Source: Escherichia phage FV3
Direction: 5' to 3' (one strand)
Sequence record: NC_019517.1
DNA length: 64,000 nt
How positions within the stretch are numbered: position 1 is the stretch's first letter; the number at the start of each line of letters is the position of its first letter. This document shows positions 2,530-12,683 of the stretch, piece by piece. A program made the translations under genes and the position numbers. The notes under the pieces were generated by a model. It ran no database searches and had not been told where the DNA came from. It was given only the letters and a program-made list of their open reading frames with translations.

Positions 2530-2910
2530 TTAGTCGTAGTGTGCCAGAATCTCTCCTTCGTTGCAAGTTCCCTCTACGAAGTTGTGAAGATTCCTGCATT
2601 CGTCTTGGTAGAAGAACTTACCACTTTTCAGCCGTAGACCAAACAACTCCGCATCTCCACGATGGCAAGCCTCTACAAGTTCATAGATTTCATACGGTAA
2701 CTCTCCATCGTCATGGAAGAACCCCGCTTTATCGTTGACATAGATGAAGAAATAGTCACTGCTGTCGCAAGCGTCCAATATTTTAAACCAGATTTCATCT
2801 ACATCTTTTTCTCGGATATCGATCACGCAAGTGGAGCTGCATTCGTACTCCTTCTCCGGCTCCTCGGTCAATACCACCAAGTAGTTTCCCCGCTTACCTA
2901 CTTTAGCCAT
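2530..2910 (-). CDS. Hypothetical acidic protein (126 aa)
   Basis: ORF in operon context; acidic composition; no recognisable motif. Confidence 0.4.
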   Translation of the reverse strand: MAKVGKRGNYLVVLTEEPEKEYECSSTCVIDIREKDVDEIWFKILDACDSSDYFFIYVNDKAGFFHDDGELPYEIYELVEACHRGDAELFGLRLKSGKFFYQDECRNLHNFVEGTCNEGEILAHYD

Positions 2911-2919
2911 ACAACCTCC

Positions 2920-4104
2920 TCAAGCTTTAGCTAAAATGGCGCTAAACTCTTCGCCAAACTCTTTTACAATCTTCATCAGGTTCGGGTATGCTTTGATCAG
3001 CTGAGCAACGATCTTGTCCCGGCCTTTACCAATAAGTAAGGCATTTCCTAGGGCGTTGGGTTTCATCATCGCCATAAAGACTGAGAATACAAAGTCTCGG
3101 TTCTCATCCTTGAAATTTTCCCAAAGGAAATCAAGGAAGTTTGCCACACAGCTGACAAGATCTTCGTCGGAGATACTTGCATTTTCCATCATGTTACGAA
3201 TAGCGATACACCCTTCAGACCCCAGAATCCACAAGATGTCTGGCTGCTTAGGCCCTACATACTCTTTGCAACCCCCTGCCATAATCCGACCGATTTCTGG
3301 CAAGTTTCGTTTCTTGGTGTGGTAGGTCCAGATTTCTACCGCTGCAGTGTGACCGATAGCACCTTGCAGAAGAACACGAGCCATAGCGTCAGAAATAATA
3401 CCGCTGTCAAAATCGTGCAGGATGTCAGATGCAGCAACCCAAGATCGCGGTGTAGCAAAAGCTGGACAATTAATCTCAGCCATGGCCTCATAATTATCGA
3501 TGGCTGATGGGACTCTTTTCAGATATCCAATTACCGAGGAGTGCACCCCATTAAGGAATGCATAGTCCTCAATAAACACCTCTGCATTGCTTGTAACTTC
3601 TACAATGATAAAGCGGTTAGCTAGAGGAGCTTCGAGCGCCGAAAGAACAGCACCGTCTGTAGCACGGTTACCTGCAGCTACAAAAACAGAGCCCTTAGGA
3701 AATGCATAGGTGCCGCACTTGTGGTCGAGCATAATTTGCATTGCAACCTTCTGCAGGTAGTTATCTGCATGAGTAAGCTCATCCAGAAAGATAATTCCGC
3801 TCCAGTTCGAGTCTGCAGGCCAAAATTCTGGAATTGCAAACACTGTGCGTGTAGTTCCATCTGCCTCTACAGGGATAGGTAGTCCAGATAAGTCAGCAGG
3901 ATCTTTATCTGACAGCCGCACGTCAACCAGGTTGTCATCTCGCTCACCGAACATATTATCAGCAATCTGCTTCATCACCTGACTCTTCCCCACACCCATC
4001 GGTCCTAAAATAAGAACAGATCGGTTATGACGCTGGGCAAATTGAATAATAGCTGGCAACTCGCGGACAGTGATTTGACCACTTTCGAATACGTTTCTTG
4101 ACAT
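2920..4104 (-). CDS. MoxR-like AAA+ ATPase (CobS/MoxR family, AAA_5-type)
   Basis: Walker A GPMGVGKS, Walker B IIFLDELTHAD, sensor AAGNRA; 394 aa with C-terminal extension. Confidence 0.7.
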   Translation of the reverse strand: MSRNVFESGQITVRELPAIIQFAQRHNRSVLILGPMGVGKSQVMKQIADNMFGERDDNLVDVRLSDKDPADLSGLPIPVEADGTTRTVFAIPEFWPADSNWSGIIFLDELTHADNYLQKVAMQIMLDHKCGTYAFPKGSVFVAAGNRATDGAVLSALEAPLANRFIIVEVTSNAEVFIEDYAFLNGVHSSVIGYLKRVPSAIDNYEAMAEINCPAFATPRSWVAASDILHDFDSGIISDAMARVLLQGAIGHTAAVEIWTYHTKKRNLPEIGRIMAGGCKEYVGPKQPDILWILGSEGCIAIRNMMENASISDEDLVSCVANFLDFLWENFKDENRDFVFSVFMAMMKPNALGNALLIGKGRDKIVAQLIKAYPNLMKIVKEFGEEFSAILAKA

Positions 4105-4373
4105 TAGTAAAAGTCCTCTACTTGTGTGTAAGTGTTTTCAAAGTTTTCCAAAACAGACATCACATCGGATCTGTCAATATCATACGCAACTCTCCAGCCA
4201 TATGCAACCCTTTCTGCTGTTGCCTCTTCTGGAGCTAGTCGTCTGCTGGCATAAAAGAGTGTTGGAGTACACTTTCTTGCTTGCCCTCTAACTTTCCCAT
4301 AATAATATCTGTGAATATCTTTGTCAAAATTTAATTCTTTTTCTGCACGAAGTTCGTACTGCTGGTATAACAT
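4104..4373 (-). CDS. Hypothetical protein (89 aa)
   Basis: ORF tightly packed in leftward early operon; 1-nt overlap with downstream gene. Confidence 0.4.
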   Translation of the reverse strand: MLYQQYELRAEKELNFDKDIHRYYYGKVRGQARKCTPTLFYASRRLAPEEATAERVAYGWRVAYDIDRSDVMSVLENFENTYTQVEDFY

Positions 4374-4417
4374 CTCTACTACTCCTTAAGCAGCATCCTT
4401 GCCGCCATCCCTACCCA

Positions 4418-4798
4418 CTAAAATGCAGTCCGAATCCAGACAAGGTTCTTATCTGCCCAATCATAGAGGCAAGTCATTGCACTATTGAATTGCTCACACG
4501 GAGGATAATCTTCTTCCATCTGGCGCATAGCAGAGCCTTGTGGGTAAAGCTCCCGTGCTGCAAACCACGCGTCGTAGTCATCAACGGTATCGAAGTAGTA
4601 TACAACATCCTCCAACTCAGGATCGAACTTTGAGCTATCAGGATTCAGTTGTTCAGGGAACTTGGAGCGTAACTTGCCAGCCACAATACTTGCCAACTCG
4701 CTAACATGCTTGTTGTCCCACTCTACCAGTTTCCCGTCTTCAGCTATGCGTCCTAACCACTGATCATGAAGGTCAACTGTTGTCTTCCACTGGGCCAT
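4418..4798 (-). CDS. Hypothetical protein (126 aa)
   Basis: ORF in operon context. Confidence 0.4.
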   Translation of the reverse strand: MAQWKTTVDLHDQWLGRIAEDGKLVEWDNKHVSELASIVAGKLRSKFPEQLNPDSSKFDPELEDVVYYFDTVDDYDAWFAARELYPQGSAMRQMEEDYPPCEQFNSAMTCLYDWADKNLVWIRTAF

Positions 4799-4800
4799 TA

Positions 4801-5058
4801 TCAGTTCACCTCTTCTTCTCGTTGCAGTTCAAGATACCCATAGGTCTGGATATCTTCAAGGGTGTGGAACTCTCCATCTGCTGCTAAGGCACGGACAACC
4901 TGGCATAGAGTTTTATAAGGTACTTTCTCCAAACCCAGATTCAGCGCAGGAAAAACCTTATCTAAGTCAACAAAATATACAAACTGTAGCTCACCAGTTT
5001 CAAAAGGCGTATCTTCGATAAACATCTTCTCGGCATTAGTCAAGATCTGCACTTTCAT
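4801..5058 (-). CDS. Hypothetical protein (85 aa)
   Basis: ORF in operon context. Confidence 0.4.
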   Translation of the reverse strand: MKVQILTNAEKMFIEDTPFETGELQFVYFVDLDKVFPALNLGLEKVPYKTLCQVVRALAADGEFHTLEDIQTYGYLELQREEEVN

Positions 5059-5435
5059 TATTCTACCCCCTCTTCTTTTTCTTCAGTATTAGTCTCAGTG
5101 CTACCCCACTCTGGAGTTTCCACCTCGATAGTAAACTCACGCACTACACGGTAATTGCCCATGAAGCGCTCCACTTCTTCAAGGCTTATGGAGAGGCCAT
5201 TGGCAACCAAGTCTGCAGCACCCTTCTCTACCAGGTAGTCCAGATTGGCTTCCAAGGCTTCAGGCTCAAACCCTGTCAATGCAATCATATAACCTTCCCC
5301 TTCATCAAGGAGGGCAATACAGCCCAACTGATTTTCTTTAAAAAAGCAGTGACCGTCATTATTGATTGGTTGTTCATTGCAGTAAATGGCTGCACGATAA
5401 GTGACTTTGGACATCGGTAAGGCCTCCTTAGGCAA
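5058..5435 (-). CDS. Hypothetical protein (125 aa; start may be at internal Met 8)
   Basis: ORF in operon context; overlapping stop/start junctions. Confidence 0.4.
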   Translation of the reverse strand: MPKEALPMSKVTYRAAIYCNEQPINNDGHCFFKENQLGCIALLDEGEGYMIALTGFEPEALEANLDYLVEKGAADLVANGLSISLEEVERFMGNYRVVREFTIEVETPEWGSTETNTEEKEEGVE

Positions 5436-6671: not shown

Positions 6672-6684
6672 CACGTTTTTGAGG

Positions 6685-6713
6685 TTGACATCTGTTGAGG
6701 CACTTGATAAGAT
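6685..6713 (+). promoter_or_regulatory. Sigma70-like promoter for rightward early operon (-35 TTGACA, 17-nt spacer, -10 TAAGAT)
   Basis: TTGACA at 6685-6690 and TAAGAT at 6708-6713; back-to-back with the leftward promoter. Confidence 0.4.
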
Positions 6714-6744
6714 TTCTTCACCTACAGAGCACAAGAGACAACTC

Positions 6745-7734
6745 ATGAATCTTGAAAAATATTATACACCAGAAGAGTTAGAGCGCCTGCTCAAAAAATA
6801 TAGACGCAAACAAAATAATGCACGGAAACGAGATATAGAGTTCAACCTGTCATGGGAAGAATACCTCCTATTTGGTAAAAAACTTTTAGGAGAGGGGGTG
6901 TGCGACTATACCCTTATACCTTTTGACATGCACACAGATGAAAACGGGTTGGGGAATCCTTTCTATCCATCCTTAGAGCGGATAGATGATGAAGGTCCTT
7001 ATGCGGTTGATAATTGTTGTGTGGTGGGATTGAGATGCAACTCTCTAAAGGACTGTCTGGTAGATAAAAAGACCGCAGTCTTGATTAAAGACAAAACTGA
7101 TCGAAAAATTGTCCAGCAGATGATGCTCCACCTGAGCGAAGAGCGCATGGAGAAATTGAAAGGTGATTACACTTTTGAAGATTTCATCTTGCAATACGGA
7201 ACGGAAGAGGATAAACTAGCACTCTTTGACGAAGAATGGGAGGAAGATATGTCACCAATGCAGGATTTTAAAAACTTCATGGCTAATCGTGGAGCCAACA
7301 AGCACATTTCTGACATTGTAAACGAGACTGTAGCAGAGGAGAATGAAGAAATGGCGCAACAGGCTTACGAAGAGGAAAAAGAGCCTCAGGGGGTCGAAGA
7401 AGGGCTTACAGAAGAGGTTCCTGCACTGCCTGACGATGTTGAGATTGCCAAAGCTTACACTTTCTATTGCCAGACGTTCTACGATGCAGGTATGAAAGTT
7501 GATCTGTCATTCAGTCAGTTTAAGAGCACGTATATTCGAAAATGTTGTGCTTTAACTGGTGAGCGTCTCGGGACCGGACTTAAACCACTATTAGTGACCG
7601 ATTGGAATAAAGGTTTCACCAAAGGTAACTTTATGGTAGTATCTCCAATTATGGAAAAGGCTATGACAGACCTTATGAAGACCACCCGCATGACAATGAC
7701 CGAGTTGGCTGGTATTTTCAAGCACGTTAAATAA
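6745..7734 (+). CDS. Hypothetical protein with endonuclease VII / HNH-like Zn-finger nuclease-fold motif
   Basis: Start set at ATG 6745 downstream of the promoter. Motif CDYT...HTDEN...ERIDDEGPY...NCCVVGLRCNSLK resembles T4 EndoVII HLDHDHELNGP...VRGLLCNLCN, but the catalytic His positions are not conserved; acidic middle region. Confidence 0.4.
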   Translation: MNLEKYYTPEELERLLKKYRRKQNNARKRDIEFNLSWEEYLLFGKKLLGEGVCDYTLIPFDMHTDENGLGNPFYPSLERIDDEGPYAVDNCCVVGLRCNSLKDCLVDKKTAVLIKDKTDRKIVQQMMLHLSEERMEKLKGDYTFEDFILQYGTEEDKLALFDEEWEEDMSPMQDFKNFMANRGANKHISDIVNETVAEENEEMAQQAYEEEKEPQGVEEGLTEEVPALPDDVEIAKAYTFYCQTFYDAGMKVDLSFSQFKSTYIRKCCALTGERLGTGLKPLLVTDWNKGFTKGNFMVVSPIMEKAMTDLMKTTRMTMTELAGIFKHVK

Positions 7735-7766
7735 TGACAGGGGCCAAGGCCCCTTCTGGAGTTTTA

Positions 7767-9227
7767 ATGGATAGCAGAAGTTCAGAAATCATTGCCGCAC
7801 AAAAAGATGACGCCTTGCGAATGCTGCAGGCAGCACGTATGTATCTTCTTGAAAAACTGCCGTTTTATGGCACACTGTTGTCAGGGTTGCAGTTCGTAGA
7901 AAACCACACATGGTGCTCCACCATGGCAACAGACCATAAACGCATTTATTACAGCCCTGAGTTCATTATGGGATTGGCGGATGAGCGCAAAACCATTCTT
8001 AAAGCATCTTTGACTGACAAGCAGTTTGAGATGGCTGAGGTTTTCTATTCCCCAAAATCTGTGAAAGAGGTGGCATTTCTTCTATCGCATGAGGTGGGGC
8101 ATATTATCTGTGATCATCTGGTCCGTGGCAAAAGTTTTGAGCCGGAGCTGTTCAATATTGCCTGTGATCATGTTATCAACACAGGTCTTGTGGTTGACTT
8201 TAGCAAGCCCCCTTGTGTTTTCTTCCCGAAGGGGAAAAGCACTACGTTTGTAAAAGGTAAGCCTTTTGGCTTCTTAGCTAGTTGCTACTGTGACATGAGG
8301 TTCCATGGATGGATTGCTGAGAACGTCTATGCGGTTCTTGATAAGCAAAGAGATCAGAATAGCGGTAAAAGTAAGAACGGTAAAGGCGAGAACTCTCAAG
8401 GAGATAAACGACAAACCGACGATCACATGAGTGGTAACGGTGGCACTAGTGATGATCTTGGAAAGGCGATGGGGTATGATCAGCCACAACCAGTGATCAG
8501 CCAATCTGATAAGGATCAAGCCATGCAGGACTCTGGTGACATGTTGGAAGCAGCAATGCAGGCTTCCGGAGGTCGTTGCCCTGAGGCTGTGCGTGAGTTT
8601 GTCAAGAACAGAGGTAAGCCTGTAATCAATTATATAGACATCATTAAACAACGTATGCTGTCTAAACGAAAGGCTGAACTAACCTATAGAAAACCCGGTC
8701 GCCGATCTGGGTCTTTGACCAGCACAATGCGAAAAGTTGGAGCTATAAACAAGAATCAGCACGTTGTTGTTCCTGGTCGTAATCCGGAAAACACTATAGA
8801 TATTGTGGTGGCTTTAGACGTTTCTGGATCGATCTCACAAAGAACTTTAAAGAAAATGTTCAATGAGATCACTGGGTTGTGCAATCTGTATAAAGAGTTC
8901 AAGGTTACGATGTTCTGTTGGTCAACTGAGGTTGGAGAGGTTAAAGTATACACTCGCGGGAACATCGACGAGATGATCAACTACGAGGTCCACTCAACAT
9001 GGGGCACAACAGCCGCTTGCGTGTTCGAGTATCTGGACGCTAACATACCAAATGCAAAAGATGTCATCGTCCTGACCGACCTCTACTTTGAGCACAACTT
9101 TGAACAAAAGGTTGTTGACAACAAGTGGAAAAAGTACGATACTTTATGGGTTCTCACCGAAGGGTATAATAAAAATTATATCCCAAGCTTTGGGAAAACT
9201 GTAGAATTGATCGAGTACGCTAAATAA
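7767..9227 (+). CDS. Putative metallopeptidase (HExxH) domain + von Willebrand factor A domain protein (DUF2201/CobT-like MoxR partner)
   Basis: HEVGHIICDH zinc-peptidase-like motif in N-terminal half; MIDAS motif DVSGSIS in C-terminal half; start set at ATG 7767 with GGAG RBS (alternative ATG at 7734). Confidence 0.65.
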   Translation: MDSRSSEIIAAQKDDALRMLQAARMYLLEKLPFYGTLLSGLQFVENHTWCSTMATDHKRIYYSPEFIMGLADERKTILKASLTDKQFEMAEVFYSPKSVKEVAFLLSHEVGHIICDHLVRGKSFEPELFNIACDHVINTGLVVDFSKPPCVFFPKGKSTTFVKGKPFGFLASCYCDMRFHGWIAENVYAVLDKQRDQNSGKSKNGKGENSQGDKRQTDDHMSGNGGTSDDLGKAMGYDQPQPVISQSDKDQAMQDSGDMLEAAMQASGGRCPEAVREFVKNRGKPVINYIDIIKQRMLSKRKAELTYRKPGRRSGSLTSTMRKVGAINKNQHVVVPGRNPENTIDIVVALDVSGSISQRTLKKMFNEITGLCNLYKEFKVTMFCWSTEVGEVKVYTRGNIDEMINYEVHSTWGTTAACVFEYLDANIPNAKDVIVLTDLYFEHNFEQKVVDNKWKKYDTLWVLTEGYNKNYIPSFGKTVELIEYAK

Positions 9228-9242
9228 GAGAGGATGTTATTT

Positions 9243-9503
9243 ATGGCAACAGAAGTAGTAATTAAAGCTGAACGCCCAGTTAAAAAAGCTATCAACACGT
9301 TCCCTGTAGGAACCATTGTGAGCATGATTACAGAGTCAGGTCGTGTATCTACACTGCTAATCGTGAAATCTGCATGCTCATCTTGTGTGTGGGCATATGA
9401 TCTTGACGAGAAAGAACTGAAAGATTTTGTTGGAGAACTGAAAGCAACAGAGCTTGACGCTCGTATTGAAGTATTTGGTGAAACCATGGAGGAAGAGCAA
9501 TGA
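9243..9503 (+). CDS. Small hypothetical protein, paralog 1 of tandem triplet
   Basis: GAGAGGA RBS; shares pattern F-x-x-G-x-(I/V)-V ... C ... D ... EI with the next two genes. Confidence 0.45.
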   Translation: MATEVVIKAERPVKKAINTFPVGTIVSMITESGRVSTLLIVKSACSSCVWAYDLDEKELKDFVGELKATELDARIEVFGETMEEEQ

Positions 9504-9763
9504 CCACAAAAATCACCATTGCAGAGCCGAAAGCTAACACGCAGCCTATCGAAAAGTTTAAATGCGGTGAGGTAGTAACATTCACACCGGACAATGAAGA
9601 TGCTAAGATTTTCGCCATGGTCACAGCCGAGTGGATGTGTGACAACACCACACAGGTTCTGCGTTTTGACACCTATCTTACAGATGAAATAAGGAACGAC
9701 AAGATCGTGACTGGTGTAGATACTGAGATTGTTTTCTACAAGAGCTTCGTAGAGGGTTTCTAA
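9500..9763 (+). CDS. Small hypothetical protein, paralog 2 of tandem triplet
   Basis: ATGA overlap with upstream gene; similar size and motif pattern. Confidence 0.45.
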   Translation: MTTKITIAEPKANTQPIEKFKCGEVVTFTPDNEDAKIFAMVTAEWMCDNTTQVLRFDTYLTDEIRNDKIVTGVDTEIVFYKSFVEGF

Positions 9764-9764
9764 T

Positions 9765-10001
9765 ATGGCAAGAATTCGTAAGTTGTCCAACAATCAAACT
9801 GTGAAAGATTTTGAACCCGGAGAGATTCTGTATGTTCATGATGCAGATGACGAAGGAGAAGATCTTGTTATGCTACTAGGGCATGCTGCTGAGGACGGAT
9901 GCATCCAGGCTGTTTTTCTTGAAACAGCTATGGTGCACTGGATAGAGCTGGACCTGAAAGCACGAAAACCTAAAGCAGAGATCTTGATTTACGAAGATTA
10001 A
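9765..10001 (+). CDS. Small hypothetical protein, paralog 3 of tandem triplet
   Basis: 1-nt spacer to upstream gene; similar size and motif pattern. Confidence 0.45.
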   Translation: MARIRKLSNNQTVKDFEPGEILYVHDADDEGEDLVMLLGHAAEDGCIQAVFLETAMVHWIELDLKARKPKAEILIYED

Positions 10002-10069
10002 CAAAAGGAGAGAGCTGTGTTGAGCAAACGTGAATGCGACAGCATTAGCCTGAATTCTTATAAGAAACA

Positions 10070-10465
10070 ATGGTTTGGGGTAGAAGTTTGCCGACTACGG
10101 CTCGGCTCCTACCTGAACTTCGTTTATACGAGAGCGATAGTCGTATCGTTTCTTATGAAGTGTTTTACACTAAGAACACCTTCGAGCTGCGACGTAAGGT
10201 GGATGGCGGGAGAGCTACCACCCAGAATAATTGGGAAACTATTCTGCCTCCAGATGTTATAGGAAGCCCCTTGAATGTATCTGAAGATGAAAATCTTATG
10301 GTTCATGCTATGATGGGACTTGACAGCTTAGAGCTGGCGATCTATGATATGTCTATCGAAGCAGTTAAACTGGACTACATAGAAAACACCTTAGAGGAAG
10401 GTATCAAGAAGTTTCTCGGTGAGAAATTGAAAGCCCACTTTCATAAGGAGCTATACCTGTTATGA
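10070..10465 (+). CDS. Hypothetical protein (131 aa); start uncertain
   Basis: Protein-like composition and ATGA coupling to the next gene; weak RBS, and a strong RBS+GTG at 10017 lies in another frame. Confidence 0.4.
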   Translation: MVWGRSLPTTARLLPELRLYESDSRIVSYEVFYTKNTFELRRKVDGGRATTQNNWETILPPDVIGSPLNVSEDENLMVHAMMGLDSLELAIYDMSIEAVKLDYIENTLEEGIKKFLGEKLKAHFHKELYLL

Positions 10466-10707
10466 AGACCCGTAAAGAACGTAACAAGATTTTACCTGGC
10501 GCTCTCGAACACATGATGAAGTGCAGATCTATCTGGCACTCTGCCAAGGAGGGGCAGCATGTGGTTGTAGTTAGTGATAATGCCAACCCATTCGGTGATT
10601 ATGTCACCATGATGACTCCATATATCAGCGACGGTGTTGTGGAAGTGGTTCCTTATAGCGGTCTGCATGAGAGGCATTTTGAAAGCACTTTGTTAGTGGA
10701 GCTATAA
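10462..10707 (+). CDS. Hypothetical protein (81 aa)
   Basis: ORF with ATGA overlap to upstream gene. Confidence 0.4.
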   Translation: MKTRKERNKILPGALEHMMKCRSIWHSAKEGQHVVVVSDNANPFGDYVTMMTPYISDGVVEVVPYSGLHERHFESTLLVEL

Positions 10708-10709
10708 TC

Positions 10710-11276
10710 ATGGCGGTCAATGTGGCTTACAACACAGGAAAGCTCGACAGAGATATTGGGTGTCTTGTCCTTTCAGATACAGAAGAGTATTGGGGTTATG
10801 GGTTGCTGTCAGACCCACACCCTAGCAACCTTGTATCAACAGTGCTATATCGCTACGACCCTGTACCAACGGTGCACGACAAAGATATTCACGACCTTCG
10901 GGTCAAGTGTCTGGAAGATCTTCTGAACAATGGCTGCAACGATCTGCGGGTAGCCAAGGAGAAGCTTACAAACATCCACAAGGAGGAAGTGATGAGCACC
11001 CTCAGTAAGAGGTCAGTGCACAAAAAGATGATGCTGAACTTTGCAATGGGTATCTACATGGATGGGTATAAGGGCGGGGATCCGATCCTCAAGCTTCGCT
11101 GCCCAACACTGTGGGAAAGAGTGGTTGACAGTAAGGACGGTACTGCTCTTCTTGAGCTCCACACTTCGGGTTGGATATGGAAGTATGTGGACGGATACCC
11201 TCTGTGGGCATGTGGACCGGGTGAGTTTGTTGACAGACCCAGCGCAGTGGTGGACTTGCTATTGCAGTTTGAATAA
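10710..11276 (+). CDS. Hypothetical protein (188 aa)
   Basis: ORF in operon context. Confidence 0.45.
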   Translation: MAVNVAYNTGKLDRDIGCLVLSDTEEYWGYGLLSDPHPSNLVSTVLYRYDPVPTVHDKDIHDLRVKCLEDLLNNGCNDLRVAKEKLTNIHKEEVMSTLSKRSVHKKMMLNFAMGIYMDGYKGGDPILKLRCPTLWERVVDSKDGTALLELHTSGWIWKYVDGYPLWACGPGEFVDRPSAVVDLLLQFE

Positions 11277-11332
11277 AAGGTGAGTTATAAGGTATTTATA
11301 CGCCCATCAACAATACAGCAGGAGAGACTGAG

Positions 11333-11608
11333 ATGACTAAAGAAGAGGCAGATGTATTAGACTTTGCACTAGAGGCCACGCAGGAGGCTTTGGTGTTAGC
11401 GTGGAAGATGAACCAGCGTGCTGCAGAATGCAATCGTCGCATAAATGAGATTCTTGGCATGCCCATGTATGATTTCACCATGCATGCCGGAGAGATTCCT
11501 GAGCTTACTGCGGAAATGGCTGATCTTGACAACAAGATCGATATTATCCTGAAGACAGCGGAAACAACTCACCAAACCGCCCGTAAATTTATCAACGAGA
11601 AGGTGTGA
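11333..11608 (+). CDS. Hypothetical protein (91 aa)
   Basis: GGAGAGA RBS upstream of ATG. Confidence 0.4.
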   Translation: MTKEEADVLDFALEATQEALVLAWKMNQRAAECNRRINEILGMPMYDFTMHAGEIPELTAEMADLDNKIDIILKTAETTHQTARKFINEKV

Positions 11609-12302: not shown

Positions 12303-12683
12303 ATGTGCAAGTGTAAATCCTATAATTGGAAAGTGAAAGGTGCCAAGCATCAAAATGTTATCGTTGATGTGCCTAAAAAGCTCCGTGACGGCAAAAAACG
12401 TGTGTGCCTTGATAAGTGCATGGCTAAACCTATCATGAGCTTGTGGGCAGCAGGATTGAAGACTCTAAACTGCTGCTGTGGTCATAACAAAGATGTTCCA
12501 AGCATCATTATCCCAGAGGATGCAGACCCTAAAGCTTATGCCAAAATACTGACTCGCTACCCCAGCACCTTTCTGATCGGAAAATGGTGTCACGATGAAC
12601 TTCAATGGTGGGTAGCATACGGCAGCATAGGTACTGCTTTTGGCTTTCCAGCTTTGTCAGAGCGCTACGTCAAAGTGTCATAA
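12303..12683 (+). CDS. Cys-rich hypothetical protein (126 aa)
   Basis: CKCK...CLDKC...CCCGH cysteine clusters suggest metal binding. Confidence 0.4.
   Translation: MCKCKSYNWKVKGAKHQNVIVDVPKKLRDGKKRVCLDKCMAKPIMSLWAAGLKTLNCCCGHNKDVPSIIIPEDADPKAYAKILTRYPSTFLIGKWCHDELQWWVAYGSIGTAFGFPALSERYVKVS

Follow-up and report, generated by a model that had tools for sequence, protein, structure and literature searches.

Results

Genomic setting of genes 14–16

The stretch of DNA analysed here (64,000 nucleotides of Escherichia phage FV3, sequence record NC_019517.1), referred to as the window, derives from the genome of a Vequintavirus, an rV5-like myovirus, and its coordinates run almost in step with those of phage rV5. 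Positions 8500–11500 are 97% identical to Escherichia phage YP-6 and 92–97% identical to 116 GenBank records. The features relevant to the locus are as follows.

6685–6713, plus strand: sigma-70-type promoter-like site, TTGACA-17-TAAGAT with TG (extended −10), found by consensus scan; equivalent to rV5 P011 at the same coordinates (Table S4) and presumed to open the unit that includes A, B and C
6745–7734, plus strand: Srd-like "anti-sigma factor" gene (rV5 gene 11), first of the unit; PHROG matches to Srd anti-sigma and sigma-70 decoy families, and so annotated in related records
7767–9227, plus strand: DUF2201_N metallopeptidase-like and VWA-like (DUF2201) gene, conserved left flank; Pfam PF13203 (5e-28) and PF09967 (6.5e-11)
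9243–9503, plus strand: paralogue A (rV5 gene 14), 86 aa, pI 4.6, polymorphic slot; phrog_10698
9500–9763, plus strand: paralogue B (rV5 gene 15), 87 aa, pI 4.5, most conserved member; phrog_12861
9765–10001, plus strand: paralogue C (rV5 gene 16), 78 aa, pI 4.6, most divergent member; phrog_12046
10017–10465, plus strand: gene 17 homologue, conserved right flank; directly after the VWA gene in genera lacking the array

The original prediction of three consecutive genes of 86, 87 and 78 aa was verified with respect to coordinates, sizes and plus-strand orientation, and the three open reading frames correspond in coordinates and size to genes 14, 15 and 16 in Table S3 of the rV5 genome paper (PMC3606486). 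There, the genes are listed without homologues or function, and the word "paralog" is absent from the paper (PMC3606486). Counterparts in the related records inspected are annotated as "hypothetical protein", and the end-to-end matches of A, B and C to their respective PHROGs families (E 1e-48 to 1e-61) all carry the label "unknown function". PHROGs and the rV5 paper thus treat genes 14–16 as three unrelated orphans, which are joined here into one family. A GAGG-type ribosome-binding site is located 7–9 nt upstream of each start codon; the start of B overlaps the stop of A as ATGA, and the start of C lies 1 nt from the stop of B. The start of A was placed at 9243 rather than at the mechanically called 9234 because the spacing to the ribosome-binding site is then right and nearly all family members begin with M-[AST]-T or MA.

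Genes 11–26 of rV5 were proposed to form one transcription unit extending from the sigma-70 promoter P011 to the terminator t026, and gene 11 was called an Srd homologue (PMC3606486). No terminator-like site was found on the plus strand between 9000 and 10100. Early expression of genes 14–16 is plausible on the basis of the consensus promoter and the gene position; a literature search for a Vequintavirus transcriptome retrieved none. In Table S3 of the rV5 paper, where structural proteins are marked as such, genes 14–16 carry no virion MS evidence (PMC3606486), and their products are not virion components.

The DUF2201/VWA gene on the left is conserved across Vequintavirinae, N4-like and jumbo phages. 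The original rV5 table divides it between genes 12 and 13, whereas the window has a single ORF of 486–497 aa. PHROGs calls its product (7734–9227), as well as the Srd-like protein (6679–7734), "HNH endonuclease", a label copied by many GenBank records; for the VWA protein, Pfam reports a DUF2201_N and a VWA-like domain instead. In rV5-like phages the genes for the MoxR ATPase (window 2920–4104, minus strand) and for the VWA/metallopeptidase protein (7767–9227, plus strand) are found on opposite sides of a divergent promoter region; in Certrevirus (CR9) and N4 the two genes are neighbours on a common strand. The gene 17 homologue on the right, of 149 aa in relatives, is split in the window into the frames 10017–10262 and 10070–10465 by a 1-nt deletion near 10127 (TTTATTAC to TTTATAC relative to JeffSchatz, YP-6 and A6-1), which reflects a sequencing error or else a genuine frameshift. 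As a side aspect of the region, 16 GenBank records (MG0656xx) named "Campylobacter phage" with C. jejuni as host are 92–97% identical to E. coli rV5-like phages across it, which looks like a mislabelling or contamination of that data set.

Conserved positions and chemical properties

An almost gapless MAFFT alignment of all family members, which are 77–88 aa long, revealed Gly23 and Ile75 (numbering of A) as invariant and Phe20 as nearly invariant residues. The recurring pattern noticed originally is thereby real in the form F-x-x-G-x-[IV]-[VLI], with its G invariant and its F nearly so over all family members, and the postulated C-terminal motif is borne out as x-I-x-[VI]-[FYL], the invariant Ile following the Phe by 55–57 residues. 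Of two further proposed hallmarks, the conserved Cys holds only in part: it is aligned in A, A2-type proteins and C but missing at that column in B, A1-type proteins and the single-copy relative. The supposed acidic stretch reflects the overall composition, with a pI of 4.2–5.0 in all members. Conservation across the family is confined to core-type residues (Phe, Gly, Ile) and does not extend to any conserved catalytic residues, which disfavours an enzymatic role.

Searches of Pfam, NCBIfam, PADLOC and the PDB sequences with A, B and C provided no credible match. A Kelch_HCF match of B (E 0.018; 14.7 bits compared with a cut-off of 113) and vimentin matches in the PDB sequence search (E 0.2) were rejected as spurious.

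Homology among A, B and C

Genes 14–16 are anciently diverged tandem paralogues of one lineage-restricted family. The relationship is barely visible in direct comparisons, as the pairwise identities are 16–20% and raw pairwise BLAST yields no match for A-B, an E value of ca. 0.1 for A-C and of 0.005 over 73 collinear residues for B-C. It becomes apparent on the profile level, for which the sequence diversity was provided by the A1/A2 genes present in 44 of the 116 records (see below) and by A-type variants found with HMMER. Alignment of the A and B families by hhalign resulted in probabilities of 87–93% (E 4e-6 to 3e-7, 74–75 columns), of the A family and C in 62% (E 7e-5, 67 columns), of (A+B) and C in 52–90% (E 1.5e-4 to 1.5e-6, 67–68 columns) and of (B+C) and A in 96% (E 1e-9, 80 columns). 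In 400 column shuffles per comparison the observed scores were never reached: the A-B score of 28.3 compares with a null of 9.8 ± 2.0 (maximum 17.5) and the (A+B)-C score of 33.9 with a null of 10.2 ± 2.1, the shuffle maxima being 17.5–18.9. Among the 401 six-frame ORFs of the window, all scored with the A profile, B and C ranked straight after A, and the best noise score was 19.9. The profile alignments asked for by the original prediction hence document significant similarity for A-B and (A+B)-C beyond both the shuffle nulls and the real-ORF controls, despite the weak raw BLAST comparisons.

When the A+B+C profile was searched exhaustively with HMMER against 1.84 billion representative proteins, 12 matches were obtained, including the further A-type variants P0032, P0034, P0035 and P0036. 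Few further variants in a collection of this size imply a very narrow family; word-indexed homologue searches with A, B and C retrieved relatives at identities of at least 79% only. Two of the matches were dropped as compositional, namely P0037, a low-complexity repeat protein, and P0038 (4717 aa, matched in six short stretches), which was judged like P0037 with its sequence unread. P0035, which belongs to a sister clade and is the single family member in its own genome, serves as an intermediate: its top three among the 401 window ORFs are A (4e-8), C (0.002) and B (0.023), with noise from E 1.4 onward, and it shares 30% identity with C over 67 aa. In a neighbour-joining tree A, A1 and A2 form one clade to which P0035 is basal, and B and C reside on separate deep branches.

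No further paralogue was detected among the 401 window ORFs (best score 19.9) or among 471 small ORFs of rV5 60–138 kb (best 19.5). Gene 18 (10462–10707, 81 aa), considered as a fourth member owing to a G-x-H-V-V-V-V stretch, was rejected with an E value of 1.2 against the C-HMM and is missing from the top hhalign scores. On the DNA level, repeats among A, B and C are limited to the ribosome-binding site/start context and two 12-mers, as expected for old duplicates.

The resemblance might in principle be fortuitous, A, B and C being unrelated small, beta-rich, acidic proteins with a shared G-x-V-V turn. The insignificant or weak pairwise BLAST results (A-B, and A-C and B-C, respectively) and the assignment to three separate PHROGs families would be in line with such a coincidence, as would the link of C in single-family comparisons, which reaches a probability of only 4–8%, with direct A-C and B-C comparisons being weak (P 0.005–0.03). 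We nevertheless regard it as extremely improbable, since the profile matches are full-length, collinear and far above the shuffle nulls and the 401 and 471 control ORFs, since P0035 matches A, B and C, and since the genes are adjacent, equal-sized and variable in copy number at one slot. Common descent is thus retained for all three genes, with C as the least certain member, whose link depends on profiles.

Predicted fold

AlphaFold2 models of A (pLDDT 80.9, pTM 0.68) and C (pLDDT 80.0, pTM 0.66) are all-beta; that of A contains six strands, and the strand order in C is as in A. Both models were built on the combined A+B+C alignment, and their common fold is therefore not an independent test of homology. 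The models of A and C in BFVD agree with those made here at a TM score of only 0.56–0.59. Within BFVD, the A and C models match an independently predicted A1/A2-type protein of phage nomo with TM scores of 0.75 and 0.73, respectively.

The predicted models of A and C display the strongly bent, five-stranded antiparallel arrangement of about 60 residues that characterizes SH3-like/Tudor/KOW small barrels, and we predict an SH3/Tudor-like small beta-barrel as the family fold. A closer assignment is not indicated. Compared with SH3-like barrels such as Tudor, KOW and ribosomal L2-type domains or the RNA-polymerase-binding Tudor domains of UvrD/PcrA, the family is without sequence relation; compared with the Tudor/KOW/L2 type, it possesses an extra long N-terminal strand, and just F, G and I are kept, with no family signature. 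Pfam gave no match to Tudor or KOW at E ≤ 1. Membership in the Tudor "royal family" is further contradicted by the presence of one conserved aromatic position (F20) and no aromatic cage, and membership in the KOW motif proteins (NusG/Spt5, L24, L2-type) by the lack of a credible PDB sequence match. The SH3-like fold is too common to point to a binding partner.

Similar in size (70–90 aa) and predicted barrel are small proteins of N4-like and other phages (N4 gp21 and proteins of SU7, ECBP2, 172-1, LAMP and Rexella), which Foldseek retrieved from BFVD with E values of 2e-3 to 6e-2 and TM scores of 0.55–0.77 to the A and C models. All these fold matches are uncharacterised, and N4 gp21 exhibits no detectable sequence similarity to the family (hhalign score 13.3, noise). 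N4 gp21 (74 aa; L021 3156–3380), which resembles the A and C models only weakly in structure, is encoded three genes upstream of the N4 MoxR ATPase (gp24) and VWA (gp25) genes.

Copy number and history of the slot

Depending on the lineage, 0, 1, 3 or 4 family copies lie between the DUF2201/VWA gene and gene 17. This slot is empty in the other Vequintavirinae genera, represented by PVP-SE1, CR9, F2M1E and LTH01, in which the gene 17 homologue directly follows the VWA gene; no family member was found within 3 kb of the VWA gene in the loci of PVP-SE1, CR9, F2M1E, LTH01, LNA4 or Mydovirus. One copy is present in an uncultivated sister clade comprising five contigs (L010 and L024–L027) with a VWA protein of ca. 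62% identity. Three copies (A-B-C) were counted in 72 of the 116 GenBank records and four (A1-A2-B-C) in the remaining 44, where A1 and A2, which share ca. 40% identity with A and between themselves, occupy the place of A. The breakpoints between A and the A1+A2 cassette are sharp and located at window positions 9253 and 9488: the DNA of phage A6-1 is 94.6% identical to the window up to 9253 and 91.5% identical from 9488 onward, without similarity in between.

The family entered or arose at the VWA/gene 17 slot as a single gene, a state kept by the sister clade. In Vequintavirus it grew in place to three genes, and an exchangeable cassette, A or A1+A2, now fills the first slot. Profile-profile comparison, the intermediate sequence P0035, the varying copy number and the common predicted strand order agree with each other, and the claim of tandem paralogy stands.

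The sister clade also contains two tandem paralogues of gene 19 (window 10710–11276), each 26–30% identical to gene 19 (L010 6938–7531 and 7577–8128; L024–L027 ca. 3938–5130), which makes two tandem duplications in one transcription unit, the array included. Furthermore, a TnpB-like gene (OrfB_IS605/Cas12f1-like_TNB) is located in L010 (2119–3258) between the divergent gene clusters, with the anti-sigma gene shortly downstream of it, and also occurs in L011.

Selection and mobility of individual members

Within the genus, dN/dS amounts to 0.04 for A, 0.014–0.033 for B and 0.08–0.11 for C, the full range of values for C being 0.05–0.11. These low ratios indicate real, constrained proteins that are not rapidly diversifying; purifying selection is strong on each paralogue. 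B is at least 92% identical across all 116 GenBank records, and B and C co-occur in each of them. The rapid diversification that had been suggested is restricted to the first slot, where A is swapped for A1+A2 at ca. 40% identity, whereas B and C, with dN/dS values of 0.014–0.11, rank with the best-conserved genes in this part of the genome.

L015 is a divergent relative in which identity amounts to 82% for the VWA protein and 55% for gene 19, with saturated synonymous sites, but B and C are 97.7% and 92% identical, respectively, at a dS of only 0.6–0.8. The B-C pair is accordingly of more recent ancestry than its flanks, which points to recombination. L018 carries a lone B-type gene (78–81% identity) upstream of the anti-sigma gene and with three genes between it and the VWA gene, in a background of core genes with only 38% (anti-sigma protein) and 48% (VWA protein) identity. 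A lone A-like gene (61% identity) is found in L013, a contig of 2.7 kb, in another context and with called neighbours other than VWA. Single members therefore move and persist alone. Directly upstream of the B-type gene in L018 are two adjacent 142-aa genes (2580–3008 and 3058–3486), the second of which codes for a homologue of window 12303–12683 (rV5 gene 24) of 64% identity; the lone A-like gene in L013 also adjoins a gene 24 homologue.

These distributions bear on two alternative views of what the proteins do. Firstly, A, B and C might be subunits of one hetero-oligomeric assembly acting on a single target, the stoichiometry of which would be set by translational coupling. Other small-barrel proteins form rings or stacks, the start and stop codons overlap or abut, B and C accompany each other in all 116 GenBank records, and the two apparently moved jointly into L015, as judged from a dS of 0.6–0.8 next to saturated flanks. 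We consider an assembly of this kind unlikely, however, as B stands alone in L018, an A-like gene stands alone in L013, the sister clade manages with a single copy, and A is exchangeable for two 40%-identical genes with B and C unchanged.

Secondly, the proteins might assist the phage MoxR ATPase and the DUF2201 metallopeptidase/VWA protein encoded nearby as accessory partners or adaptors, or be their substrates. In Vequintavirus and the sister clade, the VWA gene is invariably the immediate left neighbour of the array, and gp21 with its similar predicted fold precedes the MoxR/VWA pair of N4 by three genes. Against this functional coupling, the other Vequintavirinae genera and N4-like phages possess VWA and MoxR genes but no family member; the B-type gene of L018 is separated from the VWA gene, and the A-like gene of L013 has called neighbours other than VWA, although that contig is short. 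N4 gp21, moreover, scores at noise level against the family. On balance, we judge a partnership with the MoxR/VWA pair to be distinctly improbable.

Discussion

In our judgement the best explanation, and a moderately probable one, is that genes 14–16 are old tandem paralogues that function as autonomous, early-made binding modules, each with its own host target, in the service of host takeover or counter-defence. Mechanistically, the following scenario is envisaged. The proteins would be produced early by the host RNA polymerase and, with just Phe, Gly and Ile conserved family-wide, would presumably be non-enzymatic and act through binding as autonomous modules. Each paralogue might be specialised on a different host macromolecule, so that the array would supply distinct activities for takeover or counter-defence rather than three doses of one activity. 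That B and C are strongly conserved is as compatible with a housekeeping role in the phage as with counter-defence.

A more specific version, which we put forward tentatively and regard as doubtful, is that the family might represent a new class of small SH3-like inhibitors. The ancestral gene would have been expanded in place, each paralogue neutralising a different defence or host factor, the first slot being an arms-race cassette and B a constrained, transferable inhibitor of a conserved host target. The notion of B as a horizontally transferable inhibitor is derived from its solitary occurrence at 78–81% identity in a phage (L018) whose core genes are only 38–48% identical. No paper linking Vequintavirus genes 14–16 to anti-defence was found in the literature, and PADLOC, which covers defence genes, returned no match for A, B and C.

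Biocontrol of E. coli O157 makes wide use of rV5-like phages, which also form part of the BASEL collection, yet most genes of their early region are blank. A tandem of small accessory genes downstream of an early promoter is nothing unusual for a phage, and the SH3-like barrel is likewise a well-known fold; none of the present results should come as a great surprise to specialists. Three orphan PHROGs, known as rV5 genes 14–16, were already on record; new is their union into one family with a traceable expansion. Three orphans thereby become one evolutionary unit whose history can be read from its copy numbers (0, 1, 3 or 4), the exchangeable first slot and the horizontal spread of B. Phages carrying A and those carrying A1+A2 constitute a natural comparison design, and genes 14–16, above all B and the polymorphism of A versus A1+A2, are reasonable but unexceptional candidates for host-takeover or counter-defence screening. 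If the proteins indeed inhibit host factors or defence systems, they would establish a new family of small-barrel inhibitors; if not, the array is a neat example of genes duplicated in tandem within the accessory region of a phage.

Anti-CRISPR and other anti-defence clusters of phages typically consist of small, often acidic proteins whose genes form variable cassettes, arranged in tandem downstream of an early promoter. The array differs from them in that its members are mutually paralogous, which is unusual there, in that B and C are strongly conserved instead of variable, and in that no gene for an HTH (Aca-like) regulator was recognised beside it. It resembles them in its small acidic proteins, in its tight tandem layout, in the presence/absence and swap of a cassette among close relatives and in the movement of single genes between phage lineages.
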